Assembly (NCBI GenBank): GCA_964502925.1
Contig: CAZCYH010000020.1
Coordinates: forward strand, 442-64,441
From: an uncultured Leptospira sp.
Lineage (GTDB): Bacteria > Spirochaetota > UBA4802 > JAGODF01
DNA: 64,000 bases
Direction of reading: 5' to 3'
Below, piece after piece: positions 20,839 through 45,514 of the stretch. The notes under the pieces were generated by a model. It was not told the origin of the DNA. It did not search any database and saw nothing but the letters and a program-made list of their open reading frames with translations. The position numbers and the translations under genes are program-made. How positions within the stretch are numbered: the stretch's first letter is position 1; each line of letters starts with the position of its first letter.

Positions 20839-20853
20839 TTCAGGAGTAAAAAT

Positions 20854-23333: not shown

Positions 23334-23355
23334 AATATTTTGGGTTTGCGTTGTT

Positions 23356-24223: not shown

Positions 24224-24257
24224 GCCGCGCACCTGCAGGTATGCAAATCAAAAACCC

Positions 24258-24300: not shown

Positions 24301-24320
24301 TCGAATTTCATTTCAGAGAG

Positions 24321-25730: not shown

Positions 25731-25855
25731 GAATCACAAAGCTATCAAATTTTTTCGTTTCAAATTGGAAGCTTTTGGCGTATTTATCTTTTAAAAGTAT
25801 AGGCGTCCCTCACCGGAGGATGCCGGTTGTGAATTTTTGGATATTCTGAATTATG

Positions 25856-26089: not shown

Positions 26090-26209
26090 ATCATTAAAAA
26101 AATCATATAAAATGAAAAAAAATTTCTATCACCTCTTGACGATTGGACGGTTTGTATGTTTATTTATAATATATACCTATGGTCTATATTATAAATCGAG
26201 GAGGCAGGC

Positions 26210-29200: not shown

Positions 29201-29545
29201 GGTATGGAGATGACGGATCTCACCTCGGCGCTGAATTCTGTGGCTGGCATCGATTTCAGGTGCTTCGCGCCCAACGGAACCACGGTGACCTTCACGGTTG
29301 ACTCGGCCCTCTTTCAGGGGCCCGATGGCGTGGACAATCTTGCCGGCATCATCGCGTCGTATTTCAAAAAAGGCGGCATGCAGTTTCAGCCAAACGTGCT
29401 CAACAGGGAAATCCTCATCGATGCGTATCATCAACCCGAGAAGTATCCCTACCTCCTGGTGCGCGTGGCCGGATACTGCGCGTATTTCAATGACCTGTCC
29501 GATGATTTAAAGAAAATCATCATTAACAGGACGTGCTACTCGTAA
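26210..29545 (+). CDS. fusion protein: glycyl-radical-enzyme activase (radical SAM) + glycyl radical enzyme (Cys-x-Glu dehydratase/lyase class)
   Basis: Residues ~30-280 match a PFL-AE-type activase (HDGPGIRTTVFFQGCNLACIWCQNPE, GGGVTLSGGEPL). Residues ~310-1111 match a GRE (ERLKYVL..IYPGELLVGN N-terminus; IVGCVEP catalytic Cys-x-Glu; C-terminal glycyl motif LLVRVAGYCAYF). SD GAGGAGG lies 7 nt upstream. Confidence 0.85.
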   Translation: MQTTIIQPARDSGKRTLLPHKKNILRHGLKIISVQRTCVHDGPGIRTTVFFQGCNLACIWCQNPEARPFGDVPGREYRDVQEVLDIIERDAEYLRATGGGVTLSGGEPLMQHPEALLAFLQALKKRNISISVETTLHAPWRNIEKVVKYVDLFLVDLKVVGDDEKHRRITGADTSRIKANIKKLLSIGGKVKFRMVIVPGYNNSDDDIRRAAEYVQSLSFSSIELLKYHNLYEGKAARMNVAVEHLHIAPQESMEALKDAISKFQSYGIDAECYDLDYPRKKAAFTSRVYDIQNDIRSSEHHLCFEVAKLKTEFYRKNGFTKPNPIHRAERLKYVLSNKKIIIYPGELLVGNFTSKRKGGQVWEEHYGVLFASILHQIHRQKPVAFKCSFRDKLSFYFNIFPFWLRKGILARVNKTLRDFILLVARASEMNAGFNNNMASIAHFIVNYERVLRNGTRGLISEIESAKKANPEKKDFYDGMIIALEALEIFAVRYAHELRVLSENESDPLRKEELRRMAEICERVPKYPARTFHEALQSMLFLHIALCIESYENAISPGRLDQILYPYYKKDMEDGIIDYEKAKELLALFIIKMDEVILVNDGDTYLRIGRLFETMSTDQTVTMGGLTPDGKDATNDITYMLLDICELQPYAINMAARIHPKSPKAYLRRIAEVYLNGAPMPALYNDSIYIDTLLSHYDTTIENARNYAIVGCVEPNASDDHFGNTDCANVNVTLPLLQAIKGQEDDLWNLTFREQIDKIIAKFIEYNFRREGKISRFIRTKYASARHRRKIKKASPTYNPPASMDELLIRYQKRLNALAQSILADHQKIEKVIRTHFTTPLASTLFANCIATGMDVNEGGARFNSSGIQGVGITDAGDSLHAIDEVVFKKKLYTMREVIDAIDNNFEGEKNAEIRKALLAVPKFGQDNSPEAVAWINTALEMYVNALKSVPNVPRNGIYSAGYYALNVSDVYGSKTPALPSGRLAGVPLANSITPHYGMEMTDLTSALNSVAGIDFRCFAPNGTTVTFTVDSALFQGPDGVDNLAGIIASYFKKGGMQFQPNVLNREILIDAYHQPEKYPYLLVRVAGYCAYFNDLSDDLKKIIINRTCYS

Positions 29546-29554
29546 ACATGATTA

Positions 29555-29584
29555 CCCGCGCGCGATTGTCGCGCGCGGGTTTTG
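29555..29584 (+). terminator. rho-independent terminator after the GRE fusion gene
   Basis: CCCGCGCGCG-ATTGT-CGCGCGCGGG followed by TTTT. Confidence 0.7.
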
Positions 29585-29590
29585 CTGGTT

Positions 29591-30139
29591 TCATTTTTCT
29601 AAATTTGGCAGAGGCGCGAACACAAGCGAGGCGGAATTCATGCAGTATCTTTTACCGGTTGGAGGAGGGCCGTCATCAAATACATGTCCTAAATGTGCAT
29701 CGCAGACGGCACAGAGAACTTCTGTACGGATCATCATAAAACTATAGTCTTCTTCGTACCGCACATTGTTTTTATGAACGGGTTCTATGAAACTCGGCCA
29801 GCCTGTGCCGGAATCGAATTTCGCTCTTGAAATAAAAAGATCATTCCCGCAGCAGGCGCAGCGGAAAACGCCCGTACGCTTCTCGAAATTCAGCAGCCCG
29901 CAAAAAGGCCTTTCGGTGCCCTTTCGCCGCGCAACCGCGAAAGTCTCGGGAGATAAAATTTCTTTCCATTCTTCATCGCTCTTAAAAACTCTTTCGACCT
30001 CAATCATGGCGTTTTTCTCAATGCTGAATACCTGTATGGTGAGAGGACGCGCTTTATCTTTTTGGGGTATGTTCAAGTCTGAGCACCTGGATGTAAAGGA
30101 AATAATGATGCATAATTGAATAACAACGAGAAATTTCAT
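29591..30139 (-). CDS. msrB: peptide-methionine (R)-S-oxide reductase MsrB with N-terminal signal-like extension
   Basis: GWPSF, two CxxC pairs (CACCGN..CAVCDAHLGH), and RYCMNSASL. Start uncertain: M at 30139 gives a signal-like N-terminus; M at 30007 gives a cytoplasmic form. Confidence 0.8.
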   Translation of the reverse strand: MKFLVVIQLCIIISFTSRCSDLNIPQKDKARPLTIQVFSIEKNAMIEVERVFKSDEEWKEILSPETFAVARRKGTERPFCGLLNFEKRTGVFRCACCGNDLFISRAKFDSGTGWPSFIEPVHKNNVRYEEDYSFMMIRTEVLCAVCDAHLGHVFDDGPPPTGKRYCMNSASLVFAPLPNLEK

Positions 30140-30366
30140 AATGAATAATATTCTCGCGATTGACCATAAATTTTGCAATCAACGTTTAATTAGAATTTAG
30201 CACAAAAAAGAAGAAAATCAAAAACGAGAATATGGAATCGCGAAAATTAAGTGTTTATGATTGTACATTTTTTTAATGCCGATTGGACGAGGGCGGAACT
30301 AAGTAATCCTTCAAAATATAGGAGGAACCTCTGAAAACCCAATTCCAAATTAAAATGAAAAAAAAA

Positions 30367-30395: not shown

Positions 30396-30454
30396 TATTG
30401 TTATAAATAAAACTGACAACCCAGTATTATAAATATAAACAGATCTGGAGGTTT

Positions 30455-32248
30455 GTGATGATGTTTTTTAGAAAGGGTGTGTGTATATTCTCCCTCCTTA
30501 TACTACCACTTGTACTGCCTTCATGCAGTGGCTTTGCTCCTCTTTCAGATTTCCAGCAAAACGAAGGATATGGATATAAGCTCTTTGACATTCTGGATAA
30601 TTATCCGTCTCTCTATTCAATGGTGGATTCGCTTGAGCAATATATGGTAAACGATCTTTTATCTGAAGCGGTCAATAGAAAAACTCCTAATTATATCATC
30701 AGCACAAATATTCGTAACGAAACAATTGAAGATCCGACAAAACCGCTTCAAAAGTCATTGCGGGTTGCTCGAAATATCCTGGGGAGGGTACTTAATCAGG
30801 ATAGCCCGGAGCTTAATCGCGAGGATGAAACAACATACCATGCCGAAAACCTGTTCAGGTTTATCGATCTGATGCGTGATGCTGACTTGAAGATTGAAAG
30901 CGATCTTGTGGCGATACTTCGGGCGAAAAGCAATTATATGGTCGATAATTTCGATGCGGCATTCCATACGCTTCTTACGGATGAGGGGATAGAGGACATT
31001 GATGATCCCAATACTGCAATCGAAATGGATCTTAAACAACGTGTCGCAGCGAAAACATTTCTGCAGTGCAATTATCCTCTCTGGCTGGCTCCAGGAGGTG
31101 CAGTGCGTTCCACGAAGGATAGCATTAATGAAGCAACCGATACCAATCTGGGGGTTGGTAATTTGGTGAACGGAAGTATTGCAAAGCTTTTGGCATTGAG
31201 CAATATCATTAAAAACAAACAGGTGCGAGACCTACTTTATGAAATTATACAGCAATCTGGGAAATTCAATACCGCGAAAATCCCTGGAACCGAGAGGGGG
31301 ATGGCGGAGATTATGCAGGATTATCTCCGTGTCACCGAGAGCTATTTTACTATTGGAGGAAAAGAATACGAAACAATTACCGACACGCTCACATCGGGCT
31401 ATCCTTTTAAAATCTATGGCGGACCGATTGATCCAGCGAATACAGCAAACGCACATATTTTTTCAAATGCAGAGGCGCGTCAAATTTCCCTCTCTACCGC
31501 TCCATCTTCTATTTGTATGATGATTCGGGCGGACAGGGAAGGATCGTTGATAAGCCCTGTGAATCCGCTAAAGAAAGTGACGGATGCTGATTATGCAGAT
31601 CCATCAAATAAACATTACTTCCTCGACAAACTCATAGTGAACCTCCGCAGTGTCGGGTTTGACCCCTACGATTCCCATCTCGAAGAGTCTCTTTACGATC
31701 TCATTCGTTTCGATCTGCATGGCAGAGATCGCAAGGATGTCTCCTCGAATGCCTGGTCAGTATCGTTTCTTGAATCGCTTCTCTTTCTTTCCGGTGCGGC
31801 ACAAAATACTGGCTGGGTAGATGGAGGAGATACGAGCGAACGCAGCGAGGGCGCCAACGATGAACATGGCCATGGCAATAGTTGGGAAATTCTATCGTTT
31901 AATGATGGTTTGTTTTCCATGGGAGTACAGCTTACGAAAGCCATGGGGTGTATTGAATCCAGCATATACGATACGGCTTTTCCAAATACCTCGGGAGATA
32001 GAGTGTTTAGGAGCAGCAAAGCTTTTACCTTTGCGAATCGGGCCAATTATCGGTTTTATTATGATCAGAATTATTCGCTTCAGAGCTTTATGAGCGGTCC
32101 CTGCGCCGGCGAGATGGGCATTCCTTCTGGCGGAAATCCAAATGGTTCAACGCCATCCTTGAATGGATATCGGCCATTTACTGCGGACAGCTTCGGAGAC
32201 CGGAATATGGCCCGATGGACGTATTACAATATTGTGCGGGCGTGCTAG
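30455..32248 (+). CDS. giant surface lipoprotein, cassette 1, N-terminal part (ends at an in-frame TAG)
   Basis: Lipoprotein signal MMMFFRKGVCIFSLLILPLVLPSCSG. Paralogous to 44206..45207 plus the N-terminal third of 40659..44318. Confidence 0.7.
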   Translation: MMMFFRKGVCIFSLLILPLVLPSCSGFAPLSDFQQNEGYGYKLFDILDNYPSLYSMVDSLEQYMVNDLLSEAVNRKTPNYIISTNIRNETIEDPTKPLQKSLRVARNILGRVLNQDSPELNREDETTYHAENLFRFIDLMRDADLKIESDLVAILRAKSNYMVDNFDAAFHTLLTDEGIEDIDDPNTAIEMDLKQRVAAKTFLQCNYPLWLAPGGAVRSTKDSINEATDTNLGVGNLVNGSIAKLLALSNIIKNKQVRDLLYEIIQQSGKFNTAKIPGTERGMAEIMQDYLRVTESYFTIGGKEYETITDTLTSGYPFKIYGGPIDPANTANAHIFSNAEARQISLSTAPSSICMMIRADREGSLISPVNPLKKVTDADYADPSNKHYFLDKLIVNLRSVGFDPYDSHLEESLYDLIRFDLHGRDRKDVSSNAWSVSFLESLLFLSGAAQNTGWVDGGDTSERSEGANDEHGHGNSWEILSFNDGLFSMGVQLTKAMGCIESSIYDTAFPNTSGDRVFRSSKAFTFANRANYRFYYDQNYSLQSFMSGPCAGEMGIPSGGNPNGSTPSLNGYRPFTADSFGDRNMARWTYYNIVRAC

Positions 32249-32293
32249 CATGGCGAAGGTCCTTATTACTATGCGCCGAAAAATGCACCTACT

Positions 32294-34807
32294 TTGACGG
32301 CAAACCTTGACGGAACCGGTTCTAAGCTCTGGTACGTATACTACCGGCCTAATGGACTTTTGTATGCATATGTGCACAAAGCAGATTCAAATAATCCGTC
32401 GAGTTGGGTATATCTTGCGCCGGCCGATGGCCATGATAGTGAAGATGCGGACACATCGGTTGTCAATGATGGAAGGGGAAGGCGCCAGCGAACAAACAGA
32501 TTTCAGCACACCTGGTATTCGGATTATTATCTCGTGTGGTACAATAATAATGCTTTAGGTAATGGGAATCGATATGTCGCTCCACGCAACGATGGTACTG
32601 TTAATAGCGTGGAAGTGGGAAGTTCCGTTGAACCAGGCAGATTTGTATTTCACGAAATTCTTCGTTCTTCAAAGAATCATACACGTGAATGCGCTTCGCA
32701 CATAGAAGCGATGTACCGAAATTTTGTGTGGGCGATGAATGAAAAAAAATTCGCAGTAGTGATTCCGTTAAGCCTCCTTGCCACTTTGAACATCAGCGGA
32801 GCCGGATATAAAATCGTCGAGGCAAACGGCACGGCAGGATTGACCTCCGCACGGCGGTATTTTCAGACTGAATCGATGAATCATGTGTGGATTATGCGCG
32901 GTGATAGCGGTGATTCTCTTGGTATTTCCAATATTCCTGGCGATTATCGACAGTCTGTTTTCTGGCAGGCGGGATATTCCACTCTGGGGATAACCCTCGA
33001 TTTGACAAAAGTCTGGACTTCGACATTGTGGGGCTCTTCAACGCCGCCTGTAGTATCTCACAGTGCTCCGGCTATCACGCGTTTTGCATTTCCGCGATTC
33101 AATCTCCTGCGAACTCTGCGCTTTGGTGGTCAGGACAATCAAAATATTTCTTTTAACTTCACTATGGGTTCAGGCCCGGATTGGTTTTCAGCAAGTGAAA
33201 GCGATCCGAACTGGAACCGGCGTAATGGGTTTCTCCCCGTTTTTGTAACACTTCTTGGAACTCTATGGGATTATCAAAACCGAAATTTCGCCGATGAATC
33301 TAACAGGGATCTTGCTCTGAAAAATTTTCAGCGTTTTGGCCAGAATCTAGTAACCATGATCACTCCTCGGTTTTATTATCTGCGGAAAAATACTTCAGCA
33401 ACTAATTTCATGAAAGGAACATGGATTCCACGTATACGCGGTGATTCCGATACTGCCTCTTCGCCGCATTACTTGAAAATGCATAAAGATGCCTGGACAG
33501 TGAAAGGTTGCATCTCCGGCAATAATGCAGGTGGCTGGGATGTCACAACGGCGGGGAATATTATTAATTATCCTGAAGCTTCATTTGGTGGCATGGCACA
33601 ACGGACGTTTTTTCAACCCGAACCGATGCGTACTCTCATTAATCGCCTCTATGATTCTGATATACGGGATCTCACATCGGGAGGACATGTGGATAGGAGG
33701 TGCGATGGGCTGTTGGCATTACTTTCCCAGTATGATGTAACCCGCCCACGAGGCGGTAATAATGAACCTCAGACACGCCTTATCACACATATCTTTGCTC
33801 TACTTACCGTTTTAGCGGGTGAGGAGTTCGATGATCCTGTCAACCTGGATTACAGTGATGAAAATTTTGATGAAAATTTCGAACTATGGGGTATGCGCCG
33901 GCTTCTCTTTTACGCACTTGAACAGTTAGCTACCGGAAATAGAGGAACAAAAGGGAACATTGCGCAACTTATCGAAGAGAAGCCGCCCTTTGGAGTCGTC
34001 TTTCCTTCCTGGATGTTTGTTACCGGGGGTAGCAAAGATGCGAATGGTGAGTACGCAAGCTACTCGAATGTACGCGTAGATGAACCCGTGCTCGATGATG
34101 AATTGCGTGTTGCTATTGGTTATGATGATACCTGGGATCCAAATAATGATCCGAAGTATGGGATGGGACTGGCAACAGTCGATGAGTGGGATGAAATCGA
34201 CTGGGATATATTTGCCAAGAAGGTAGCGATGTCCGGTGAACTGATGAGTGACGGAGGTATAACTGAAGGGAAATACAATATCACTGGTAATCTTATAAAT
34301 ATCATTGAAAATTTCGCCACCAAGGTCACGCCCTCGGCGGATCAGATCAAAGCGATAGTTCATACCATAGGAATAGTACATGCGTATTATGACGGTTCCT
34401 GGCGTTACCCAGATGACATGAAAAAGCTTTCGCTTGAATATGCGAGACGAAAGCTCGAAATTGGACGTGGAAGAGAATTGGAGTCCGCATTGTTTTCCAG
34501 AGAGCTTTTGATAGGGGGTGGGCTTGTGCAGTATATCCTTGAGACGATGGATACACCCTACACGGCTGGAGAAATTTTCAATGATCTCTACCGATTCCTT
34601 GGAGATCCGCTGGTGGCGAATGAAAATTCTTCGCTGTGGAGCGACCTTGTGGAAATGAGCGAGGGACAGATTACGCTCATACAGAGATCAATAGGAGTAG
34701 AACCAGCCAGTCTCTATGAGGATGTAGGCTATCAGTACAATGGTCCGCTGTTCTATGCCGGTGAGATTGACTATTACGGAGATTTGGGCAGAGTGTTATC
34801 ACGCTAA
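32294..34807 (+). CDS. giant surface lipoprotein, cassette 1, C-terminal part
   Basis: Same frame as 30455..32248. The residues after the TAG (HGEGPYYYAPK) align to WNGEGPYYYDPAK in the paralog 40659..44318. No known domain recognised. Confidence 0.7.
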   Translation: MTANLDGTGSKLWYVYYRPNGLLYAYVHKADSNNPSSWVYLAPADGHDSEDADTSVVNDGRGRRQRTNRFQHTWYSDYYLVWYNNNALGNGNRYVAPRNDGTVNSVEVGSSVEPGRFVFHEILRSSKNHTRECASHIEAMYRNFVWAMNEKKFAVVIPLSLLATLNISGAGYKIVEANGTAGLTSARRYFQTESMNHVWIMRGDSGDSLGISNIPGDYRQSVFWQAGYSTLGITLDLTKVWTSTLWGSSTPPVVSHSAPAITRFAFPRFNLLRTLRFGGQDNQNISFNFTMGSGPDWFSASESDPNWNRRNGFLPVFVTLLGTLWDYQNRNFADESNRDLALKNFQRFGQNLVTMITPRFYYLRKNTSATNFMKGTWIPRIRGDSDTASSPHYLKMHKDAWTVKGCISGNNAGGWDVTTAGNIINYPEASFGGMAQRTFFQPEPMRTLINRLYDSDIRDLTSGGHVDRRCDGLLALLSQYDVTRPRGGNNEPQTRLITHIFALLTVLAGEEFDDPVNLDYSDENFDENFELWGMRRLLFYALEQLATGNRGTKGNIAQLIEEKPPFGVVFPSWMFVTGGSKDANGEYASYSNVRVDEPVLDDELRVAIGYDDTWDPNNDPKYGMGLATVDEWDEIDWDIFAKKVAMSGELMSDGGITEGKYNITGNLINIIENFATKVTPSADQIKAIVHTIGIVHAYYDGSWRYPDDMKKLSLEYARRKLEIGRGRELESALFSRELLIGGGLVQYILETMDTPYTAGEIFNDLYRFLGDPLVANENSSLWSDLVEMSEGQITLIQRSIGVEPASLYEDVGYQYNGPLFYAGEIDYYGDLGRVLSR

Positions 34808-34824
34808 AAAAGGGGATTTGAGTT

Positions 34825-36339
34825 ATGAAAGGCAGCATGGCACGTGTAATATTAAGTGGTTTGTTGTTGATGGTTATTAAATATGATGTGTACGCGAGCG
34901 TGTTTGCCGATACCTACGGATATTCGGCAAAGGGTATTGCAATGGGCAATGCCATGACAGCAGTGGTGAATGACTGGTCGTCAGTGTTTTACAATGTATC
35001 CGGCTTGGGGAAAACTAGAGATCTTTATTTAAATGGCTTTGATGACGGTGCGGCAGGCACTTCGCTGACTATAAAGCAGAAAAACGAGGCAGGTAAAAAG
35101 GGACTTAAAGAGAAAACATCGGAAATGTCTTCCTCAGAACCACCGGTTCCTAAAAGCCAGCTTGCAATAAGCTATTTTTACACACAGCCGATGTTCCGTA
35201 TTGATATCAATCGTTATGATGAATCCACCGGCGTTCCTCTTGAGACCAATGGAGCCGAGGATCTGGGATTTGGGGCAATGATACTTGGTGTTGCGTTTGA
35301 TTTAAATGTACTCTTTTCGTTTCCGGATATAATTTCTTCTGCGCGCTTAGGTCTCGGATTAGGATCAATTCAAGGTGGCTATGCGCAGAAGATGAACGAC
35401 ATTGATCAGCGCACGCACAATTTCCTGCGCTACGGAAGAGAGGCGCAAAAATCGGTTATCATTGTTGGATTGGGACTTGGGTTTTTAAATGATGCATTCG
35501 GCATCGGCGTGGGAGGCAATATAACCTTTGCAGGTCAAGGTACTACTATGATTTCCGGTACGGAAGTGGGTCCTGCGGAACAGACACCCATGATCCAGAA
35601 CCGTATGGATCTTCGTACTCAGCCGATGCCCGTGGCAGGTGTCTATGTTAATCCCGGAAAATTTTTCTCTGTTCTTGCAGGGCTTCAGATTGGCGTAGCA
35701 TATCGCCATGAAACGTATGTCCAGATTGATCCGTTTGCGACGCGCAATCAGCTGAAAGTGGGAACTGCAACAATGGACCTCCAGCTTGCGCTTCTGGATT
35801 TTTATACGCCGTTTGTTTTTACCGGTGGCATCGCTTATGATTTTAAAAGAACCGCGATACCTATCCTAAAAGGGATTATTGTATCACTTGAGGTTCAATA
35901 TGAAATGTGGTCGCGCTATAAAAACTCATCTGCCGTTGAAAAATTGTATGCAAAACTGGCTGCTGAAGAGGGTGAGGAGTATCTTCTTCCCGATTTCGAG
36001 GATATCATAGTTCCTAAAATCGGTTTTTCCTACACAGCCGCAAACTGGCTGACACTGTATGCGGGGTATTACTATCAGCCGACATTCGTACCCGATGATG
36101 CAATAAGCGGTTTATTTAACTATCTTGATAACAAAAAACATGTGGGTTCACTGGGAATGACGTTCAGGCTCCCGAATTTCAGCGCGGTGAGAGGTGTTGT
36201 CGAAATTACGTTAGCGTTTCAAGCGCAGTATTTGCAGGAACGGGAAGTGGTAAAAATACATCCCACCGGTTATAATCCAAACTACTGTTTTAGTGGCTGG
36301 AACCCCACTGGCATGATTGAGATATCGCTCAGGCTGTAA
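34825..36339 (+). CDS. FadL/TodX/OmpP1-family outer-membrane channel, cassette 1
   Basis: Signal peptide followed by a FadL-type N-terminal motif (YGYSAKGIAMGNAMTAVVNDWSSVFYNVSGLG). C-terminal aromatic beta-barrel end (MIEISLRL). Confidence 0.75.
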   Translation: MKGSMARVILSGLLLMVIKYDVYASVFADTYGYSAKGIAMGNAMTAVVNDWSSVFYNVSGLGKTRDLYLNGFDDGAAGTSLTIKQKNEAGKKGLKEKTSEMSSSEPPVPKSQLAISYFYTQPMFRIDINRYDESTGVPLETNGAEDLGFGAMILGVAFDLNVLFSFPDIISSARLGLGLGSIQGGYAQKMNDIDQRTHNFLRYGREAQKSVIIVGLGLGFLNDAFGIGVGGNITFAGQGTTMISGTEVGPAEQTPMIQNRMDLRTQPMPVAGVYVNPGKFFSVLAGLQIGVAYRHETYVQIDPFATRNQLKVGTATMDLQLALLDFYTPFVFTGGIAYDFKRTAIPILKGIIVSLEVQYEMWSRYKNSSAVEKLYAKLAAEEGEEYLLPDFEDIIVPKIGFSYTAANWLTLYAGYYYQPTFVPDDAISGLFNYLDNKKHVGSLGMTFRLPNFSAVRGVVEITLAFQAQYLQEREVVKIHPTGYNPNYCFSGWNPTGMIEISLRL

Positions 36340-36362
36340 TATTGCTCCATCTTCAATGACTG

Positions 36363-36620
36363 TTAAAAAAGCGGTGTTGCCGCATCAGACCAGATGAGCG
36401 CTGCATCGTATGAATGCTTTGCTCCTCTTTTCGAGACGACGCGACCTCCGTTCAAGATGAAAATCCTGCCATGCTTGCCGTCTGCGGTTTTAATCATGAT
36501 GCGCAGATTCTGAATGCTGCCGATTTTTAATATTGAGTAGCGCTCCGTAGTATTGTGCCGCTTTTTCAATGTCTTCTACCACAATGCCGATTTGTGAAAC
36601 CGGCGGGAGTTTCATTTTTT
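36363..36620 (-). pseudogene. glyoxalase/VOC-family-like small gene with apparent frameshift
   Basis: QIGIVVEDIEKAAQYYGALL (VOC N-terminal pattern) in ORF 36490..36780 continues in another frame (ORF 36363..36569). Confidence 0.3.
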
Positions 36621-36953
36621 TTAGCAATAATATGTTTTGCTGTGATAGTGCATTGAATGCATCCATGTTTGTTTCCGCCGGAATGATAATTATTCTTTGA
36701 TTTTTAAACAGATTATAGATTAGGATAATGATTTTGCAATACATTTTTTTTGATACGATTGATGCTGGAGGGTTGGTCATAACGCAGTAAACCCATTACG
36801 AATTCGAAGATTATCTTTATAACGAAAACCGTTACTACTTTTAATAAAGAAATTTTGAAAAAAATGTTGGAAATAAATCCTGCGGTATTATGTAGTGTTA
36901 CAGCAATGTAAATAGCAAACTGCGTATTGGTCTATGTATCCGGGGGTGTTGCT

Positions 36954-39116
36954 GTGAAAAAACATATTGTCGCAATCATAGCGTTATTGCTCATTTCGGA
37001 AGCTGCATTCGCCGCGTTTATTGTTGATGATAATTTCAATTATGCACCCATTAGCAATCATCTTGAATATCTTGAAGACCCTTTGGGAAAATTGCAATTT
37101 GAAGAGGTGCGCAAAGGCATATCATGGAACGAAATATATACGGATTCGGTAACTTTCGGCTTCACTCCAAAGACCTACTGGTTTAAATTTTCACTGCAAA
37201 ACGAATCGCAACTTAAAAACTTTCTTTTTGAAATCACCTATCCTCTGCTCGACTCGGTCATTTTTTATAAGCCTGACGGAAAAGGCGGATATACAAAATA
37301 TGAAACAGGAGATAAATTTCCTTTTTCGCACAGGCCTTTTGGCCATGTGTCATTCGTGTTTCCAATTGAACAACAGGGAGGATTGCAAGAATACTATTTT
37401 AGAATTCAAACAACCAGTTCATTTACGTTTTCTGCGAAATTATACAGTATTGCTTCTTTCTTTCAAAAAATGAACGAAGAGCTGCCAGCAATATGGATAT
37501 TCTATGGGCTCATGATAATCATGATTGTATATAATTTTATCATATTCGTTTCAAGCCGCGATTTAAGTTATTTTTACTATTCGCTATTCATTGCCTGCTG
37601 GGTTGTGTTGCAGATGTGCCTCAACGGGTATTCATTCCAGTATTTATGGCCCAATTCGCTCTGGTGGCAGGATAAGGCAAATTCATTTTTTATGGCGATC
37701 ACTTACTTTGCAGTGGGATTGTTTTTCATATATTTCATGGGGCTTGCGCAAAAATACCCAAAAGCCAACATTGTGTGTTGGGCAAGCAGTATCGTTCCTG
37801 GTTTTGTATTAGCAATGGTATCTCTGATTATTCCCTATGCAATATCTATTAAAATAACTGCGGCCTTTTCGGGAATATCAGCGGCAATCCTTTATATTAT
37901 TGGCCTGGTCTTATGGCTGAAATACAAGTCACGGCAGGCTATGTTTGTGCAGTTAGCTTTTTTCGGATTTGTAATTGGTATAGTGCTGTATGTCTTGAAA
38001 ACCTTTGGAGTACTTCCGGCCAACTTCATCACACACTACGGCATCCAGATCGGCGCTACATTAATGATCATTTTGCTTTCTCTGGGGCTTGCCGACAAAA
38101 TCAATACTATGCGGTGCAATCTTCAGGACCTCTTGGATAAGCAAAAAGAAAGCGAGCGCGAAGCCGTAGAAAAAGCAGTTTTTTTAAAGGGGATAGTTAC
38201 AACTGTTAATCTCATCTCGGGAGATTTTACAAAAGTGAGCGGGGAGCTTAGCGAAATCAGCCAGACATTTTCCGAGCTTTCGATGGAGCAGGCATCGACA
38301 AGCGAGCAGATGTCGGCCACATTTGACGAGTTGGTATCGTCGATCGAACGCATTCATGAATCTACACTTCATCAGCAGGAAGAAGGCGAAAAGTCGAAAA
38401 AATACAGCGATGAATTGAGCGAAGCACAGCGCAAAATGGTGAAAGAGAGTATTCAGGTCGCCCGTAGTGTCGAACAGATTTCCCAAGCGGCAAAAACCAC
38501 AGAAGAAAGCCTAACCTCTATGACGAAAAAAATGCAGATCATAAACGATGGTGGCAAGGAAATCGATCAGTTCGTTGCCATTATCGATGATATATCCGAT
38601 AGAATAAACCTGCTTTCTCTCAATGCGGCAATTGAAGCTGCGAGGGCAGGTGAGTACGGTCGCGGTTTTGCTGTAGTTGCAGATGAAATTGGAAAACTTG
38701 CTCAGGCTACCTCGGATAATTCAAAAAGCATTGCCAGTCGCATTAAAACAATTATTGCCGACATAGATGAAGGTGCGAGGCTGGTAATGAGCACGAAAGA
38801 ATCCACCGATGTAATTTTTTCAATGGTGGATACTATCAAGAAGGGAATAGATGAAGTGAAAAATCTGATGGCGGTTCAGAGTAAAACATTGGATACTGTT
38901 GTGAAACAGGCTGGCTTGATTGAAACGCTCTCAAAAGAAGTGGCGGTTTCCACCCAAGAACAAAAAGATTCCATGGTGCAGACATTGCACACAATAGAGC
39001 GACTTTCGGAAATGGCAACGGAGATTTCGGCGGCAAACCAGAGAGTAATCGGCTTCGTTCAGGAAATAAGTCTGAATTCAGAGAAATTAGCCAAAACGGT
39101 TCAAGGCACTGCGTGA
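36954..39116 (+). CDS. 7TMR-DISM (extracellular DISMED2 + 7TM) methyl-accepting chemotaxis-like sensor
   Basis: GTG start with a GGGGGTG RBS and signal peptide [20 protein letters not shown]. Periplasmic domain, 7 TM helices, then the MCP signalling motif [32 protein letters not shown]. Confidence 0.8.
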
Positions 39117-39178
39117 GACGTTAAATATACCCGAGTTTAAAAAAGTAGCAGTTTGATTACATGTGTTTCATCGTCTTT

Positions 39179-40639
39179 TCACAGGCGCATGCTGACTTCC
39201 ATGATTGCCGAGATGCACTGGCCCCCGTATGTGTAGTTGGGGTTCCATGTGGGATCGGGATTTCTTTTAATAACCTCGCGTTCAACAAGATATTGGTATT
39301 GCCCGCTCAGAATGATAGTAAGTGGGCCGCCCATTCCTCCCAATCTGGGTACTGAAATTTTTAACCCGAGTGCGACTGCATGAAGGCTGTTGTCGAGCAG
39401 ATTGAGCCTGCCTTTCATCTCGCTATCTGGAATAAAGCTCGGCTGGTAGTAGTAACCACCCATTATGCTTATCCAGGAAGAGATATTATATGATATGCCT
39501 CCGCGAGGAATAATTATATCATTAAATTTTGGAAGTTTATAATCTTCGCCTAACCTTGATACCGCATCGGCATAAACAATTTCAATTGTTCGTGAAAATT
39601 TATATTTGGACCACATCTGATATTCCACAGCGAGTGTCAACGTCCAGTTTCCTCGTGTATATCCTAAGCCAAATACTACGATATGTGGGGTGTAGTTTTC
39701 AAAAATAGACATGTTCATGGACATTTCCATTCCACCTACAAGCATCGTGGTGCTCGTCTGAAATGGGTAAAGCTCCATGTACGATTCCTGGCGGTAGCAT
39801 GCACCTATCTCAAGGCCTTCTAAAAGCCGAGTGAACTTGCCCGGGGAAACATATATGCCTGCAACAGCTGCCGGAGCTGCCTTCAGGTCAGTGCGCGACT
39901 GGCTTTCGGGCGTTTGTTCCGAAGGCCCCACCTGCACATCAGAAACAAGGACCTTCCCCTCTCCTTTAAAGTTCATGTTTGCACCGAAGCCTATGCCAAA
40001 TGCATCGTTGAGAAAGCCAAATCCGACTCCGGCGATAATAACCGCTTTTTGTGCTTCTCTACCATAACGGAGAAAATTATGAGTCTTCAAATCAATATCA
40101 TTTATGCGGCTGGCGTAACCATCGGAAAGGCTGGAAAGCCCCAGGCCAAAACGTGCTGATGATATAAATTTTGGCAAAGCATACACCTTGTTGATGTCGA
40201 TTGCGAGCCCGATGATGAACATGCCGAACTGGAGATTTTCGTCACCTTTAACTCCTTCCCTGTTGATGTTAATGGCAAACCTTGGTTGTGTGTACAACAT
40301 TGATAGGGATACCTGATTGACAAGATCCTCCGAGTTTTGACCTTGCACTGAATGTTTTTCCGCTGATGATTCTTTTTTTGAGGTTTTGTCATTAAGGGTT
40401 AGAACAGTGCTTTTATGTGTAATATCCGCAGAATAACTTTTTTCCTTGTCCGATTTTGTTCTGCCGAGTCCTGCAATATTGTAAAAAACGGAGGACCAGT
40501 CGCTGACAACAGCCGTGATGGAGTTGCCCATTGCGATGCCGGTTGCCGAATACCCATATGTGTCGGCGAAGTTACTTGCTTCAACAGTTGCAGCAGATAC
40601 AAGGGAAAGCATAATGATTGAAAATATTGTTTTTTTCAT
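39179..40639 (-). CDS. FadL/TodX/OmpP1-family outer-membrane channel, cassette 2
   Basis: Signal peptide MKKTIFSIIMLSLVSAATVEA followed by FADTYGYSATGIAMGNSITAVVSDWSSVFYNIAGLG; ends MEVSMRL. Trimmed from ORF 39179..40765. Confidence 0.75.
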   Translation of the reverse strand: MKKTIFSIIMLSLVSAATVEASNFADTYGYSATGIAMGNSITAVVSDWSSVFYNIAGLGRTKSDKEKSYSADITHKSTVLTLNDKTSKKESSAEKHSVQGQNSEDLVNQVSLSMLYTQPRFAININREGVKGDENLQFGMFIIGLAIDINKVYALPKFISSARFGLGLSSLSDGYASRINDIDLKTHNFLRYGREAQKAVIIAGVGFGFLNDAFGIGFGANMNFKGEGKVLVSDVQVGPSEQTPESQSRTDLKAAPAAVAGIYVSPGKFTRLLEGLEIGACYRQESYMELYPFQTSTTMLVGGMEMSMNMSIFENYTPHIVVFGLGYTRGNWTLTLAVEYQMWSKYKFSRTIEIVYADAVSRLGEDYKLPKFNDIIIPRGGISYNISSWISIMGGYYYQPSFIPDSEMKGRLNLLDNSLHAVALGLKISVPRLGGMGGPLTIILSGQYQYLVEREVIKRNPDPTWNPNYTYGGQCISAIMEVSMRL

Positions 40640-40658
40640 GCCATTTTCTCCATGAGGA

Positions 40659-43600
40659 TTATCGTGAAAACACTTTGCCGAGATTCCCGAAAATATCGAA
40701 ATACACCTCACCGTTAGGCCCGTTATATTGAAAGCCGAGCTTATCATATATTTCCCAGCCTGCATGATCCATTGACCGACTCATCGATTCAAGCATGCCT
40801 TCGTTCATTTCAATCAGGTCATCCCATAGTTGCGAATGAATATCGCTGATGAGAGGGTCGCCAAGAAATCGGTAAAGATCTTCAATTATTTCGCGGGCTG
40901 AATAATCTGTTTCAGCCGTGTGGACGATGTAATCCGCAAATCCACCGGGTCGCATGAAATCGCTTGAAAGAAGAGCTGCCATTCGCATGTTTTCACCCTG
41001 AGTAAAATCTGGATTGTTTGCCGAAATTTCCAACATCAAAGGCAGGTATTCTGTAATAATGGTTTTTACATCATCAGGATAAATCCAGTTTCCATCATAG
41101 TACGTCGAGGAAATACCAATAGTGTGGACAAGCGCTTTTATCTGTTCCTCGGTTGGATTAACTTTTGCCAGGCATTTATCCACAATATTAATAATATCTT
41201 CCATGACATTGTAGTTCCCTTTTGTTGTTCCATTGTTGGAGAGAAGTTCTCCAAGGCGGGAAATAGTATCATTAAAGAGGTTCCAGGATTTTCCCTCAAA
41301 GTTAGGATCCGAGATGTCCCTTTCGTCCGGGTAGGCTGCAAGTCCTGTACCCTGAAGGGTGGGGGTTTTATTATGCCCTATAAGCGAATGGAGAGATTTG
41401 TCGATGATGATGATGTCTTCGGGGCGGACCCCGCTGAAAGAATCGAAATGGCCATCGCCATCAGTATCCATGCCGGTAGCAAACATCCATGAAGAATAGG
41501 TAATGTTTTTCGGCGGCCTTCCGAGAATATCTACAACTTTGGTTTTGGTGAATTTCATTGAAGAAACGATTTGCTCAAGAGCGTAAAAGAGCTTCCGCCT
41601 TGCACCCCATGTCGGGTATGATGAATCAAAATATGCCGACGAGTAATCCATGTCGGGTGGGTCGTTGAATTTTTCGTCAGAAAGCTTCATCAAAAGTTTC
41701 AACACTTTGGTGATAAGCCTTGTTTTAGGGTTGTTGTCAGTCCCTCGTGGTCTTGAAACGTCGTATTCGGTCAATAGCGCCAGTACTCCATCGCAATGTC
41801 CGTCTGGTGATGCAACATCTGAATCGATGAGCAGATTTAATGGAGTTCTCATCGCCATGGGCTGATAAAAATTTCGCTGTTTCCAGCCACCCCAATAAGA
41901 ACGATCGGAATCAACTTCATGGCTGCGAATATGTATCCTTCGATGATGGGGCATATTGTCTGGATTTGTGTAGCCATAGTTCGGATTGGTAACCGTGCCT
42001 CCGGTTATTCTTGGTATCCACGTGTTGACGGTGGTTTCGGTACCGCCCTTTGAGTATCGGTAGTAAAAGCGCGGCAGAATGGGTATCATCATCGTTTCGG
42101 TGAATTTTTTCAAACGTGCAAGCGTTGAATCCCGATTTGTTTTGTCGGCAAAGTTCTTGTTTTGATGATCAAGGACAGTGCCAAGCATTGTTATTATGAG
42201 CGGGAGAAGGGTGTTGCGCTTGTTCCAACGGTCATCGCCCACGGTGAAACCGTAATTGCTGTTGGGATCCGAAATTCTCCTGGAACCGAGAGCGTAGTGA
42301 TTTTGATCATTATTCGCACCGGCTTTATAATATCGCGGAAATCCAAAACGGAAAACACCAGGGGCATTATGTGCCACCAGCGGTGGATTTACGGTTCCGT
42401 TAGCCATCGAGCCCCACACGGTCTCGTACGATATGATGGCATCACCTTTGAAATTTTTCATACAGATGCGGTAATCCCCTGGCCAGGGAGAGGTGTTGTC
42501 AGTATTTCCTGCAATTGCCCAATAGTCCGCATTGGAAGCATATTTCCTTGCCGATGTTAATCCAGCAATACCGTTTCCTTCCACAACCTGAAATACTCCG
42601 GCATGGGCTAGTGAAAGTCCGGTCAGAGCCAGCGGCACAACAATGGCGAATTTCTTTTCTGTCATGATCCACTGATAATTTCTGAATATTGCTTCTTCAT
42701 GAGAGGCACAGGCGCGGTTGGGGTCGTCTTCGCTGATTAGTTCATTGAAAACGAAGCGGCCTGCTTCAAGGGAATCTCTCTGTGAAGAATTCTCCGCAAT
42801 TCTTTCAGGTGTAATGTACCATTTATTAAATAAATCATCAACAACCTGGATCATATAAAAGTCTGAATACCATTTCGCTCGATATCTGTTCCATCGTTCA
42901 AAGGTTCTTCCAGAAATTCCTTTTCCAAGATAATAGGTGCTGAGATCAGCCGCATTATCCACATTCCAGTTTACTTCTTTGTCGTCCCCATCTGCGGGAT
43001 AAAGATATAGATATGGTTCGTCTATGCTTTTGAGCATATACGCCTTCCCGTTTGGCCTGTAGTACATATAAAATGTCCTGTCTTTTGCAGCTGAAGTACG
43101 TTCAACCTTAAGCGACGATATCACATCGTTACATCCTCTATTGGTAAGATTACTTTCATCGGAGGTGAAGACCCAGGACGAGCCTCCGTAATTGTCATTT
43201 TGATATGCGGTGACTTTGAGACCAGCCGGAACTTTAATTGATGAAAGGTCGTCATTGCCAATACCATAGGATCTTAATGCTGCCAAATCGTAATTGCCTA
43301 TCTTCAGTTTGGCAGAATACCCTCCGTAATTTGCATGCTGGAACACTTCAACCCGGTCCAGCGAGGCGGTGTTGAAGGTGACCGTTTCTACCTGGTTCCC
43401 TGCTTTTGCTGGATCATAATAATACGGACCCTCGCCATTCCAACAAGCCCGCACCATCCAATACAATGTGTATCGGGACATGTTTGTGTCGCCAAAGCCG
43501 TCGGGAGTGAAAGGTTCGTATGTATCGTCGTTACTGTTGTATGCGCCTCCATTGGGATTACCACCTGTAGGAATGCCAACATCTCCCTGCGAATACCCAC

Positions 43601-44318
43601 TCATAAACTTCTGGGCTGGCCAGTTTTGCGTATAGCCAAATTGAAAATTTGAGCGCTGGCCATAGGTAAATCTTGTTTTTGCGCTTCTGGAAATGCGGCT
43701 TCTTAAATTGTCGAATGCAAGTCCGTAGGTATTGTTGCCACATGTTTCGGATCCTCCCATCGCAAAAAGTGAATCGTTAAAGGTGACATGCTCCACGCTA
43801 ATACCATGCCCATGCTCACGGTTTGGATCACCATCGTCCGTTATTTCACCGTTTTGTCCCCCGTCGTTCCAACCACCAGCCTGTGATGCAGCAGATAAAA
43901 ATAAAAACTGTTCAAGATAGGAGGTGGGATAGGCGTTTGATGTTTTTCTATCCCGACCATAGGTATCAAAGCGAATGAGGTCATAAATGCTTTCTTCGAT
44001 GTTTGCTGATTCGGGATCAAACCCGATATAGGCTAAATTTCTTATGAATTTATCGAGCAAATAGTTTTTGTGGCCAGAACTCTCATACTCCGGACTAGAA
44101 GTACTTTTGAAAGGATCCACGCTGCTGATGAGAGATTCGGGACGGTCCGACCTGGCAAAGTGGCCAAGATTTCCTATTTGCATCGTTAGAAGCAGGCGGG
44201 TCAGTTCACTGTTTGAAAAAATTGGCGTCGCTTGGATTGCCATTATACAGTGGAATGCCAACGCTCTGTTCTCCATGCTTACTTCCTCCAGCCGTGAAAA
44301 AATCTTCTGCTGTTTCAA
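40659..44318 (-). CDS. giant surface lipoprotein, cassette 2, main part (5' end frameshifted relative to 44206..45207)
   Basis: 1219 aa that align to the C-terminus of 30455..32248 plus all of 32294..34807 (e.g. YDLIRFDTYGRDRK / YDLIRFDLHGRDRK; YMYYRPNGKAY / YVYYRPNGLLY). Confidence 0.7.
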   Translation of the reverse strand: MKQQKIFSRLEEVSMENRALAFHCIMAIQATPIFSNSELTRLLLTMQIGNLGHFARSDRPESLISSVDPFKSTSSPEYESSGHKNYLLDKFIRNLAYIGFDPESANIEESIYDLIRFDTYGRDRKTSNAYPTSYLEQFLFLSAASQAGGWNDGGQNGEITDDGDPNREHGHGISVEHVTFNDSLFAMGGSETCGNNTYGLAFDNLRSRISRSAKTRFTYGQRSNFQFGYTQNWPAQKFMSGYSQGDVGIPTGGNPNGGAYNSNDDTYEPFTPDGFGDTNMSRYTLYWMVRACWNGEGPYYYDPAKAGNQVETVTFNTASLDRVEVFQHANYGGYSAKLKIGNYDLAALRSYGIGNDDLSSIKVPAGLKVTAYQNDNYGGSSWVFTSDESNLTNRGCNDVISSLKVERTSAAKDRTFYMYYRPNGKAYMLKSIDEPYLYLYPADGDDKEVNWNVDNAADLSTYYLGKGISGRTFERWNRYRAKWYSDFYMIQVVDDLFNKWYITPERIAENSSQRDSLEAGRFVFNELISEDDPNRACASHEEAIFRNYQWIMTEKKFAIVVPLALTGLSLAHAGVFQVVEGNGIAGLTSARKYASNADYWAIAGNTDNTSPWPGDYRICMKNFKGDAIISYETVWGSMANGTVNPPLVAHNAPGVFRFGFPRYYKAGANNDQNHYALGSRRISDPNSNYGFTVGDDRWNKRNTLLPLIITMLGTVLDHQNKNFADKTNRDSTLARLKKFTETMMIPILPRFYYRYSKGGTETTVNTWIPRITGGTVTNPNYGYTNPDNMPHHRRIHIRSHEVDSDRSYWGGWKQRNFYQPMAMRTPLNLLIDSDVASPDGHCDGVLALLTEYDVSRPRGTDNNPKTRLITKVLKLLMKLSDEKFNDPPDMDYSSAYFDSSYPTWGARRKLFYALEQIVSSMKFTKTKVVDILGRPPKNITYSSWMFATGMDTDGDGHFDSFSGVRPEDIIIIDKSLHSLIGHNKTPTLQGTGLAAYPDERDISDPNFEGKSWNLFNDTISRLGELLSNNGTTKGNYNVMEDIINIVDKCLAKVNPTEEQIKALVHTIGISSTYYDGNWIYPDDVKTIITEYLPLMLEISANNPDFTQGENMRMAALLSSDFMRPGGFADYIVHTAETDYSAREIIEDLYRFLGDPLISDIHSQLWDDLIEMNEGMLESMSRSMDHAGWEIYDKLGFQYNGPNGEVYFDIFGNLGKVFSR

Positions 44319-45207
44319 TTAATGTTTTAAATATGTCTTTGGGAGCTTTCTCACCTCCCGGCGTATTTAGTTTAATGCTAAAAATATTTCCGCATTCCCT
44401 GATGATATCGTGTAAATCTTCGCGAACGTTTTCGTCGCGCGTAATTGAAGTAAGAGCCATCAAAAGAGCATTCACGCCTTCAACAGCATTTCCAAGCCCT
44501 GTGTCGTAATCTGACTTGGGGTCGATATTTTCACGATCAGTGATAAGAGTGCCATTGATTCCCCCATCCAGCCAGATAGTGTAGTCTGCCTGAAGAAATA
44601 GCTTCCCGAGTGTCTCAAAATTTGAATCGAGTTCTTCTTTCAGATCGTTATCCAGCATCAAATCAATGTTATCTATGAGGAGGTTTTTAATGGTGAGGGG
44701 ATCGTAATAATCTAATTCATATTGTTCTGCTTTCCGAATAACGGAAAGAATATCGCTGCTTATACCAAGATCAGTATTCCTGACGGCATCAATAAATGCA
44801 TAAAGGTCCTGGGCATATCCGGTTTCTGGCGATGAGGTATGATAATCGAGCTCGTCTTGTTGTATAATTCGTTCGATGAGGCTTCGAATTTTTTGAAGTG
44901 TTTTTTGAAGAGGGCGGTCGCTGTGACCGATGAGTCGGTTGGTATCCTTCGTATTTTCGATATATTCATTCTTTCGTTCGTTTATGACACTGGAAAGGTG
45001 GTAATTAACAGTGTCCTGATCGAGGTGGTTAACGATGTCGTATAGAGAAGGATAATTATCGAGGAGGTCGAATAATTTATAATCATGCCCTTTATTGGCT
45101 TGAAATGTTCCCAATCCGGATTCGGAACAAGAGAAAAAACACATGAGGATAAAAGCAAAAAATATCCATTTGAACGAAGAAGTTTTAAAAGCCATAAAAG
45201 CCTCCAT
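44206..45207 (-). CDS. giant surface lipoprotein, cassette 2, N-terminal part
   Basis: Lipobox CFFSCSE. GHDYKLFDLLDNYPSLYDIV aligns with GYGYKLFDILDNYPSLYSMV of cassette 1. Overlaps 40659..44318 by 113 nt in a different frame. Confidence 0.65.
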   Translation of the reverse strand: MEAFMAFKTSSFKWIFFAFILMCFFSCSESGLGTFQANKGHDYKLFDLLDNYPSLYDIVNHLDQDTVNYHLSSVINERKNEYIENTKDTNRLIGHSDRPLQKTLQKIRSLIERIIQQDELDYHTSSPETGYAQDLYAFIDAVRNTDLGISSDILSVIRKAEQYELDYYDPLTIKNLLIDNIDLMLDNDLKEELDSNFETLGKLFLQADYTIWLDGGINGTLITDRENIDPKSDYDTGLGNAVEGVNALLMALTSITRDENVREDLHDIIRECGNIFSIKLNTPGGEKAPKDIFKTLIETAEDFFTAGGSKHGEQSVGIPLYNGNPSDANFFKQ

Positions 45208-45300
45208 ATTCTTAATAAATCTGTGAAGGGTAGATTGGCACATAAAAGATACATGAATTCATAATCCAAACTTTTCTGGGCGATAATAGTTTAGTAGTAT

Positions 45301-45328
45301 TTTTATGAGTGATTCATCACTCATAAAA
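45301..45328. promoter_or_regulatory. perfect 28-bp palindrome (candidate operator) upstream of cassette 2
   Basis: TTTTATGAGTGAT-TC-ATCACTCATAAAA. A degenerate second site GAGTGAGTAATCACTCAT lies at 45371..45388. Confidence 0.5.
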
Positions 45329-45514
45329 ATTTTAAAAAAAAGAATAATTATTTGAATTAGTTAGTATACGAGTGAGTAATCACTCATCTATATACATAAA
45401 AAATTAATCTAATATTAATAAAAACAATTACTATCGTCAACAAAAAAAACCGTCTATTCTGTTTTTTTGGAGAATATCATTATTGCAGATTCGCAGGTCA
45501 TAAAGACTCATCGA

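Follow-up and report, generated by a model that had tools for sequence, protein, structure and literature searches.

Two diverged copies of a giant lipoprotein and FadL-type barrel operon around a chemoreceptor gene in an uncultured Leptospira

What might a pair of giant lipoproteins do when each is encoded directly in front of a FadL-like outer-membrane channel, and are such pairs still in working order? The question is raised by a 64,000-nucleotide stretch of DNA from an uncultured Leptospira sp. (contig CAZCYH010000020.1, positions 442 to 64,441; hereafter the window). We analysed window positions 30455-45243, which hold five genes, and refer to the lipoprotein and FadL-like genes as L1 and F1 in cassette 1, and as L2 and F2 in cassette 2. 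Comparison contigs and loci are labelled L001, L067, L068, L069 and so on, with L067 a 95%-identical and L001 an 86%-identical relative. Both cassettes are copies of one conserved two-gene operon, with the lipoprotein gene first and the barrel gene second:

30455..34807, plus strand: L1, giant lipoprotein gene of cassette 1, which would encode 1450 residues; open reading frames (ORFs) 30455-32248 and 32294-34807 share one frame.
34825..36339, plus strand: F1, divergent FadL/TodX-family outer-membrane barrel of 504 residues, identified by subfamily profile matches and a partial NCBIfam AupA match.
36954..39116, plus strand: 7TMR-DISM chemoreceptor (7TMR-DISMED2, 7TM and methyl-accepting chemotaxis protein (MCP) signalling domain), identified by Pfam matches.
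39179..40639, minus strand: F2, FadL/TodX-family barrel of cassette 2, 486 residues, start ATG at 40639, 45% identical to F1.
40659..45195, minus strand: L2, giant lipoprotein gene of cassette 2, which would encode ~1510 residues from ATG 45195; ORFs 44206-45243 and 40659-44318 lie in different frames.

The likely start of L1 is the ATG at 30458, located behind a GGAGG at 30447-30451. For L2, the ATG at 45195 is a likelier start than the first ATG of the ORF at 45243, from which the protein would count 1527 residues. The lipoprotein stop is separated from the barrel start by 17 nucleotides (nt) in cassette 1 (34808-34824) and by 19 nt in cassette 2 (40640-40658), in line with the short gap described in an earlier note on this DNA. 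The two cassettes, on the plus and minus strand respectively, converge on the chemoreceptor gene, which follows the end of F1 after 587-614 nt, depending on its start (the ORF is open from 36927, with a likely GTG start at 36954). Homology between L1 and L2 extends over their full length (BLASTP E 8e-173 and 4e-127), and F1 matches F2 with E 4e-158, as expected for the homologous, convergent cassettes that the note had proposed. Its identity values require correction: the lipoproteins are 39-40% rather than about half identical, and the FadL-like proteins, given as three quarters identical at their N-termini, share 45% overall and ~80% across the first ~40 mature residues only. The locus had also been called palindromic. 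This applies to the mirrored gene order but not to the DNA, where inverted repeats between the cassettes span 39-113 nt at 73-75% identity and are confined to conserved coding segments.

L1 and L2 are not sister sequences. The nearest relatives are shared within each cassette, with L1 and F1 both grouping with L001, L002 and L068, and L2 and F2 both grouping with L005. This supports the earlier suggestion of an old duplication, as opposed to an assembly artefact; either the divergence of the window's two cassettes is ancient, or one of them came from another lineage. The protein distance matrices of lipoprotein and barrel correlate with r = 0.87, a value reached in 0 of 2000 permutations. Together with the shared nearest relatives, this indicates that the pair is inherited and duplicated as a unit.

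Is the pairing kept elsewhere? In GTDB, scanned at one genome per species, 62 loci were found, nearly all in metagenome-assembled genomes (MAGs) of Spirochaetota (many of them Leptospirales), Desulfobacterota and Myxococcota, several of which carry multiple or tandem lipoprotein gene copies. Cultivable carriers include Desulforapulum or Desulfobacterales relatives and, for the divergent subfamily, saprophytic Leptospira such as L. perolatii. Adding the window's two genes gives 64 near-full-length lipoprotein genes. A FadL-subfamily gene was found directly downstream on the same strand of 31 genes, 8 are upstream copies within tandem arrays, 6 have a short flank and 19 have no such gene within ~6 kb. 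The paired fraction is hence 31 of 50 evaluable genes, and the window's clade is paired throughout. Pairs turn up in almost all clades, down to the deepest (L064/L065), with a gap of mostly 9-100 nt. Counting from the barrel side in an independent metagenome collection, and considering the 28 subfamily members that score >500 bits and are preceded by 700 nt or more of DNA, a lipoprotein gene lies directly upstream in 26 cases. The pairing is therefore conserved in other genomes when viewed from either gene, as the note had expected, but it is not universal, a FadL gene within 6 kb being absent from three clades of the lipoprotein family.

A distant barrel subgroup (26% identity; L109, L110 and L118) displays the reverse order, with a lipobox protein of ~1,020-1,050 residues encoded downstream of the barrel. 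This protein fits the lipoprotein family profile in L109 and L118, but not in L110. The reversed loci span 5980-10642 in L109, 5962-11856 in L110 and 5938-10186 in L118, and L110 has an extra ORF of ~457 residues between the two genes.

The lipoproteins belong to a family that lacks annotation. Relatives were identified by a word-indexed search of 5.8 billion proteins (19 sequences) and by profile search (9 more), giving 28 proteins of ~1,210-1,680 residues. An exhaustive hidden Markov model search of 1.84 billion cluster representatives returned 183 matches at E <= 1e-3 and 107 at E <= 1e-30. None of the 28 relatives has a precomputed Pfam domain, bar a faint crystallin match on the L2 orthologue, and distant and longer relatives are likewise devoid of any Pfam domain. 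When L1 and L2 were searched against Pfam and NCBIfam, nothing was found except a beta/gamma-crystallin insert in L2 and a single chance-level YabA match (NCBIfam, E <= 0.1). The lipoprotein is thus unlike any known enzyme family in both domain and relative searches; this result, together with the retention of the FadL pairing in other genomes, leaves the earlier proposal of a dedicated pair standing.

The lipobox reads LPSC in L1 and FFSC in L2. Its Cys is invariant in a 16-sequence alignment (C22 of P0001), and all complete homologue N-termini examined show an h-region followed by an [AS]-C-[GS]-type lipobox. A second hydrophobic segment was not found in the lipoprotein. Both L1 and L2 satisfy the pattern of predicted signal peptidase II substrates, i.e. 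lipoproteins. Of the earlier description as lipobox lipoproteins without recognisable domains, the lipobox Cys holds for both and the lack of domains for L1, but not for L2 given its insert. A (D/E)FQxN motif is conserved 8-12 residues past the lipidated Cys, and the core of the protein contains the invariant segments SDRP, GRDR, GWxDGG, HGHG, GEGPYYY, RAC and PGDYR. These charged, polar and aromatic residues are what would be expected of a site for specific binding or catalysis. As far as a moderate-confidence model allows, the predicted fold has no solved relative. The insert that distinguishes L2 is located as follows:

43054..43350 (approximate), minus strand: beta/gamma-crystallin insert of L2, missing from L1, identified by Pfam PF00030.

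Beta/gamma-crystallins of the Ca2+-binding type follow an N/D-N/D-x-x-S/T-S motif rule, and such inserts are typical of extracellular proteins. The L2 insert scores 27.2 bits against a 25-bit cutoff and contains two motifs of this type, NDDLSS and NDVISS, while AlphaFold2 confidence is low across the insert. Among the homologues, L054 (JAQVMG010000040.1), labelled as a Thermoplasmata archaeon, encodes a full-length family member within a Spirochaetota-like tandem array; the contig is probably mis-binned.

Membership of the barrel in the FadL/TodX superfamily, as proposed in the note, is secure at the level of sequence profiles. A profile built from 22 subfamily members and compared with PDB sequences matches TodX (6z37, E 1.5e-9), TbuX (3.4e-8), CymD (7.7e-4) and the Pseudomonas aeruginosa FadL homologue 3dwo (5e-3), with the matches covering the C-terminal half of the barrel. 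Furthermore, 13 of the 22 members match PF03349 (Toluene_X), the best with E 1.1e-12. The NCBIfam AupA equivalog NF041571 (cutoff 840 bits) is matched at 31.2 bits by F1 and at 60.1 bits by F2 (E 1.4e-16), in both cases partially, at model positions 233-415 of 444. Matches to the PorV/PorQ model NF033709 (cutoff 90 bits; F1 22.7, F2 16.2) are limited to 30-40 N-terminal residues. No SusD/RagB or plug domain was matched; 5 of the 22 barrels have weak TonB_dep_Rec_b-barrel matches, the best with E 2e-5.

The barrel N-terminus has the consensus WSSVYYNxAGLG with invariant N57, G60, L61 and G62, reading NVS in F1 and NIA in F2. The invariant Asn of this YN-x-[AS]-GLG motif may sit where the NPA hatch motif of FadL falls. 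Right behind the hatch-like motif, residues ~64-115 of F1 (window 35014-35170) and the equivalent part of F2 form a variable, low-complexity insert of ~50 residues rich in Lys, Ser and Glu. This region is not known to have a counterpart in FadL or TodX.

The gene between the cassettes encodes a 7TMR-DISM methyl-accepting-type sensor, as previously assigned: 7TMR-DISMED2, 7TMR-DISM_7TM and MCPsignal are all matched above their cutoffs (119.4, 149.6 and 106.4 bits; E 1.4e-34, 1.5e-43 and 1.9e-30), and both the GTG start at 36954 and the signal peptide were checked. The complete mirror layout is present in L067. In L001, cassette 1 and three more genes are followed by the same MCP gene, and a GMC oxidoreductase occupies the place of cassette 2. 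As the mirror layout was found in the window and L067 only, it does not represent a general arrangement; it is a trait of the lineage and not of the system.

A link between pair and sensor is seen in a wider, but still restricted, set of loci. L068 (58% identical) encodes a 7TMR-DISM protein with an AraC-type output, the sensor part of which is 29% identical to that of the window MCP (E 4e-53). In L025, a 7TMR-DISM gene is located 3.4 kb downstream of the pair, and in L005 the gene converging on the barrel gene encodes an MCP that lacks a DISM domain. Among the 134 neighbouring ORFs at paired loci we counted 2 7TMR-DISM proteins, in addition to those of the window, L001 and L067. Out of ~35 paired loci, a 7TMR-DISM sensor lies near the cassette in L001, L067, L068 and L025, and the chemoreceptor association is confined to the window's own clade. 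The occurrence of the same sensor module with differing outputs beside the pair is suggestive, and concerns a handful of related genomes. In L068, the sensor gene (7888-9513; 7TMR-DISMED2, 7TM and AraC-type helix-turn-helix) lies directly upstream of the lipoprotein-FadL pair, and its product looks like a membrane one-component regulator, making it a candidate controller of the adjoining operon.

Other recurrent neighbours among the 134 ORFs are TetR regulators (4), flavin adenine dinucleotide-dependent oxidoreductases (6) and HGD-D dehydratase subunits (4). Three loci, from Desulfobacterales or deltaproteobacterial MAGs, have an acyl-CoA synthetase and thiolase pair immediately upstream, and acyl-CoA dehydrogenases or a START-domain protein occur at single loci. 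The neighbourhood thus leans mildly, but not generally, towards acyl or hydrophobic-substrate metabolism. Upstream of L2, a candidate operator was found:

45307-45322 and 45370-45385, no strand assigned: two perfect 16-bp palindromes, GAGTGA-N4-TCACTC, 63 bp apart.

Both are positioned between a promoter-like site, TTGACG-17-TAATAT (45440-45412, minus strand), and the L2 start, and look like a repressor operator. No exact copy of GAGTGA-N4-TCACTC occurs elsewhere in the window or in the L1 upstream region, and no regulator gene was identified near the palindromes.

Two further genes of the window deserve mention. Positions 26210-29545 (plus strand) encode an 1111-residue fusion of a radical S-adenosylmethionine (SAM) activase domain (residues ~41-208) with a pyruvate-formate-lyase-like glycyl-radical enzyme; the gene keeps its position in L001 and L069, adjoining a sulfatase gene. 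A 1478-residue protein is encoded at 52428-56864 (minus strand), with PPDK_N and the PEP-utilising mobile domain as the only Pfam matches, both in the last ~430 residues; no Pfam match was obtained for the first ~1050 residues.

Are the cassettes of this genome intact? The earlier note had taken each lipoprotein gene to be an unbroken ORF of ~1450 codons. This proved incorrect, with L1 split by an in-frame TAG and L2 by a frameshift, and genes have also been lost between F1 and the chemoreceptor gene:

32246..32248, plus strand: premature TAG in L1 (TGG to TAG), at the site of a conserved Trp/Phe.
44219..44228, minus strand: L2 frameshift site, window CCAATTTTTTCAAAC versus CCAATGTGTTTTCAAAC in the 95%-identical relative, from the alignment with L067.
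36367..36744, no strand assigned: remnants of deleted genes, namely what is left of a small hypothetical gene together with the 5' portion of a glyoxalase gene, from blastn against L067 and L001.

The TAG splits L1 into 597 and 837 residues. At this site the window reads VRAC*HGEGPYYY, L2 has VRACWNGEGPYYY and the family consensus is VRACFxGEGPYYY. Orthologues of L1 are intact (P0001, 1446 residues, 86% identical; L067 copy, 1449 residues). In L2 the frame changes at ~44221-44226, giving ORFs of 345 and 1219 residues. Relative to L067 the lesion is a 2-nt deletion, by which AATGTGTTTTC became AATTTTTTC; dropping one T at the lesion restores the 1527-residue frame, collinear with L1 end to end. 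The gene calls deposited for the 65,349-bp source contig are likewise split (596 and 837 residues). The gap region was compared between window 36340-36930, L067 8550-11279 and L001 10055-12709. Both relatives carry a glyoxalase-family gene, a 122-residue ORF and a gene for a thiamine pyrophosphate (TPP)-dependent enzyme between F1 and the MCP gene. In the window, the TPP-enzyme gene is gone, along with most of the glyoxalase gene and part of the 122-residue ORF. Using blastn, window 36367-36536 aligns to L067 9450-9285, and the window from 36520 aligns to L067 from 8774; L067 8775-9284 and 9451-11226 are missing from the window, corresponding to two deletions of ~0.5 and 1.8 kb. L067 bears its own, different lesions: its L2 is stopped by a CAA-to-TAA change, and its MCP gene and F1 are both frameshifted (positions 435-437, about 7485-7617 and about 11742-11760). 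Taken together, the lesions of L067 and the window suggest locus-specific decay or counter-selection.

The ratio of non-synonymous to synonymous substitution rates (dN/dS) between window and L067 is 0.11-0.17 for L1, L2, F1, F2 and the MCP gene. Purifying selection therefore acted through nearly all of the 5% divergence, and the lesions are recent. They may be recent mutations, polymorphic, or in part assembly errors. It could be argued that the interruptions all stem from erroneous sequencing or assembly of a metagenome-derived contig and that the cassettes are really intact and in use. Selection until very recently would agree with this, as would the frameshifts in the MCP and F1 genes of L067, itself a metagenomic contig and maybe the product of error-prone assembly. 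However, two of the lesions are stop-making substitutions (window, TGG to TAG; L067, CAA to TAA) as opposed to homopolymer slips, the 2-nt deletion in L2 lies in a non-homopolymer context, and the window deletions leave gene remnants behind. Moreover, ~13 kb of flanking genes (ATP synthase, purL, purQ, sulfatase, glycyl-radical enzyme, msrB) are intact in window and L069 without disruptive differences, the other window genes checked have full-length domain matches, and the split gene calls stand in the deposited record. The two substitution-type stops and two remnant-leaving deletions argue that at least some of the lesions are real, and we regard error throughout as unlikely. Both lipoprotein genes have most likely been recently inactivated in this genome, and the module is probably out of service here. 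L069 and L067 derive from the same sample, ERZ6863929. Synonymous divergence is 0.31-0.36 for the flanking housekeeping genes (window 13871-30259 versus L069) and 0.09-0.16 for the lipoprotein/FadL/MCP locus (32973-45293 versus L067); either the locus was exchanged later by recombination, or the ERZ6863929 contigs come from different strains.

What does the pair do where it is intact? The proposal we lean towards, with slightly less than even confidence, is a two-component outer-membrane module that acquires a hydrophobic substrate, the barrel acting as conduit and the lipoprotein as a binding or processing partner. The lipid-anchored lipoprotein of ~1,350-1,500 residues would bind, and possibly process, a poorly soluble substrate at the membrane, which would next enter through the FadL-type barrel by lateral diffusion, as is known for FadL, TodX and AupA. 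The characterised relatives of the barrel, TodX, TbuX, CymD and AupA, all carry hydrophobic molecules (AupA: PMC5989066). We also count in favour of an acquisition module the pairing in both directions, the co-divergence, the acyl-CoA context, the invariant core residues and the dN/dS of 0.11-0.17. We infer a physical complex of lipoprotein and barrel, as well as the lipoprotein's outer-membrane face, the nature of the substrate and transport as such. Several observations weigh against acquisition. F1 falls below threshold for PF03349 (14.9 bits, E 0.0094, cutoff 29.7) and F2 has no match to it at E <= 0.1. The ~19 unpaired genes of three clades, with no FadL gene within 6 kb, have rpoN/hpf, an extracytoplasmic function (ECF) sigma factor or a radical-SAM gene as neighbours. 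No third conserved gene was present beside the pair among the 134 neighbouring ORFs, and a lipid-metabolism context is limited to a minority of loci. The structure model of the lipoprotein is moderate (predicted local distance difference test (pLDDT) 69, predicted template modelling score (pTM) 0.76), and the helical N-terminal third modelled alone reaches a pLDDT of only 46. Finally, the barrels of BamG-BamH, which pairs with a surface lipoprotein, and of PorV, which binds surface cargo, are not uptake channels (PMC12578637). In view of these FadL homologues, the description of the pair in the note as "capture and uptake" was overstated, and we keep it as a conditional reading (PMC12578637).

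The barrel might instead export, anchor or position the lipoprotein at the surface, as for BamG/BamH and PorV/PorQ, with the lipoprotein serving as adhesin, surface enzyme or coat unrelated to uptake. FadL homologues are known to bind surface lipoproteins through extracellular loops (PMC12578637), and the F1 and F2 N-termini weakly match PorV/PorQ models. Strict co-inheritance and co-divergence fit an obligate structural pair equally well, the (D/E)FQxN motif 8-12 residues past the Cys could be a docking segment, and independent inactivation in two related genomes fits a dispensable or counter-selected surface antigen. The Ca2+-type insert of L2 is also of a kind typical for extracellular proteins. 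The PorV-family scores of 22.7 and 16.2 bits are, however, far under the 90-bit cutoff, the best characterised matches of the barrel are the true transporters TodX, TbuX and AupA, and acyl-CoA metabolism genes lie alongside in a minority of loci. The many unpaired family members further argue that the barrel is not generally required for export, unless it is encoded elsewhere. We view such an anchor or export role as less likely than acquisition, but as its main competitor. A still smaller share of our confidence goes to a lipoprotein facing the periplasm, anchored either in the inner membrane or in the outer membrane's inner leaflet, that takes a hydrophobic substrate from the barrel and hands it inward, like the role proposed for AupB. 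Residues following the lipidated Cys direct Lol sorting, and Desulfobacterota members have C-G-G or C-S-G at this position, which is consistent with default targeting to the periplasmic side of the outer membrane. The best NCBIfam match of F2 is to AupA (E 1.4e-16), and FadL-like AupA and AupB form one operon, interact and are both required for alkane uptake (PMC5989066). Against such a handover, the lipoprotein has no NCBIfam match, the gene order is opposite to aupAB, and the AupA scores of 31 and 60 bits are far under the 840-bit equivalog cutoff. The size of 150 kDa and the crystallin-type Ca2+ insert are likewise more typical of a surface protein.

How does the pair compare with known systems? 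F1 and F2 belong to the same superfamily as FadL, TodX, TbuX and CymD (PF03349), but are very divergent. The barrel described here is almost always encoded right behind a giant lipoprotein gene, whereas the cited transport-type FadL channels are described as solitary, FadL itself working alone (PMC5989066). AupA-AupB of Marinobacter hydrocarbonoclasticus resembles the pair in that the gene of a FadL-type barrel shares a transcript with that of a large, functionally uncharacterised envelope protein, the two proteins interact, and both are necessary for uptake of the hydrophobic (alkane) substrate (PMC5989066). AupA is also the best NCBIfam match of both F1 and F2. In contrast, aupAB has the barrel gene first, and AupB, compared here by its description, is an inner-membrane protein, while the lipoproteins of the window lack an NCBIfam match. 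In BamG-BamH and BamG2-BamH2 of the Bacteroidota beta-barrel assembly machinery, and in PorV/PorQ of type-9 secretion, a FadL homologue binds a surface lipoprotein or cargo through extracellular loops; in BamG, however, an N-terminal extension plugs the lateral opening and the protein is not an uptake channel (PMC12578637). BamG and BamH were set beside the window proteins by description, and the PorV-family similarity is weak, N-terminal and below cutoff. SusC-SusD offers an analogy only, with an outer-membrane barrel next to its own surface lipoprotein and many diverged copies per genome, a feature mirrored here by the multiple and tandem lipoprotein gene copies. The barrel of the present pair is FadL-type and not a TonB-dependent 22-strand barrel, and the lipoprotein lacks a SusD/RagB domain and is about three times larger. 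Our literature search found no described system consisting of a FadL-type barrel and an obligate giant lipoprotein partner. Barrels with a dedicated lipoprotein and lipoprotein-binding FadL homologues are already established. The lipoprotein family of this rare two-gene unit is unannotated, with no Pfam or NCBIfam model and no recognisable fold.

A bolder version of the acquisition proposal, which we consider less likely than not, is that a previously unseen lipoprotein fold and a dedicated FadL-type barrel constitute a new class of outer-membrane machine that captures and takes up insoluble hydrophobic substrates, as a FadL-based equivalent of SusCD. Such a machine would be modular, with duplication and diversification within genomes of Spirochaetota and Desulfobacterota; some lineages would have it wired to 7TMR-DISM sensors, of chemotaxis or AraC-type output, responding to that same substrate. 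With independent inactivating mutations in two close genomes, the locus is a small natural experiment on the module's dispensability. The lipoprotein family is found almost wholly in uncultured anaerobes from sediments, digesters and groundwater, settings where the turnover of hydrophobic carbon matters. How barely soluble substrates such as long-chain lipids, hydrocarbons and waxes are fed to FadL channels is poorly understood, and a co-evolving 150-kDa lipoprotein partner might supply the missing capture step. The pair would join BamG-BamH and PorV as a third kind of assembly that combines a FadL homologue with a lipoprotein.

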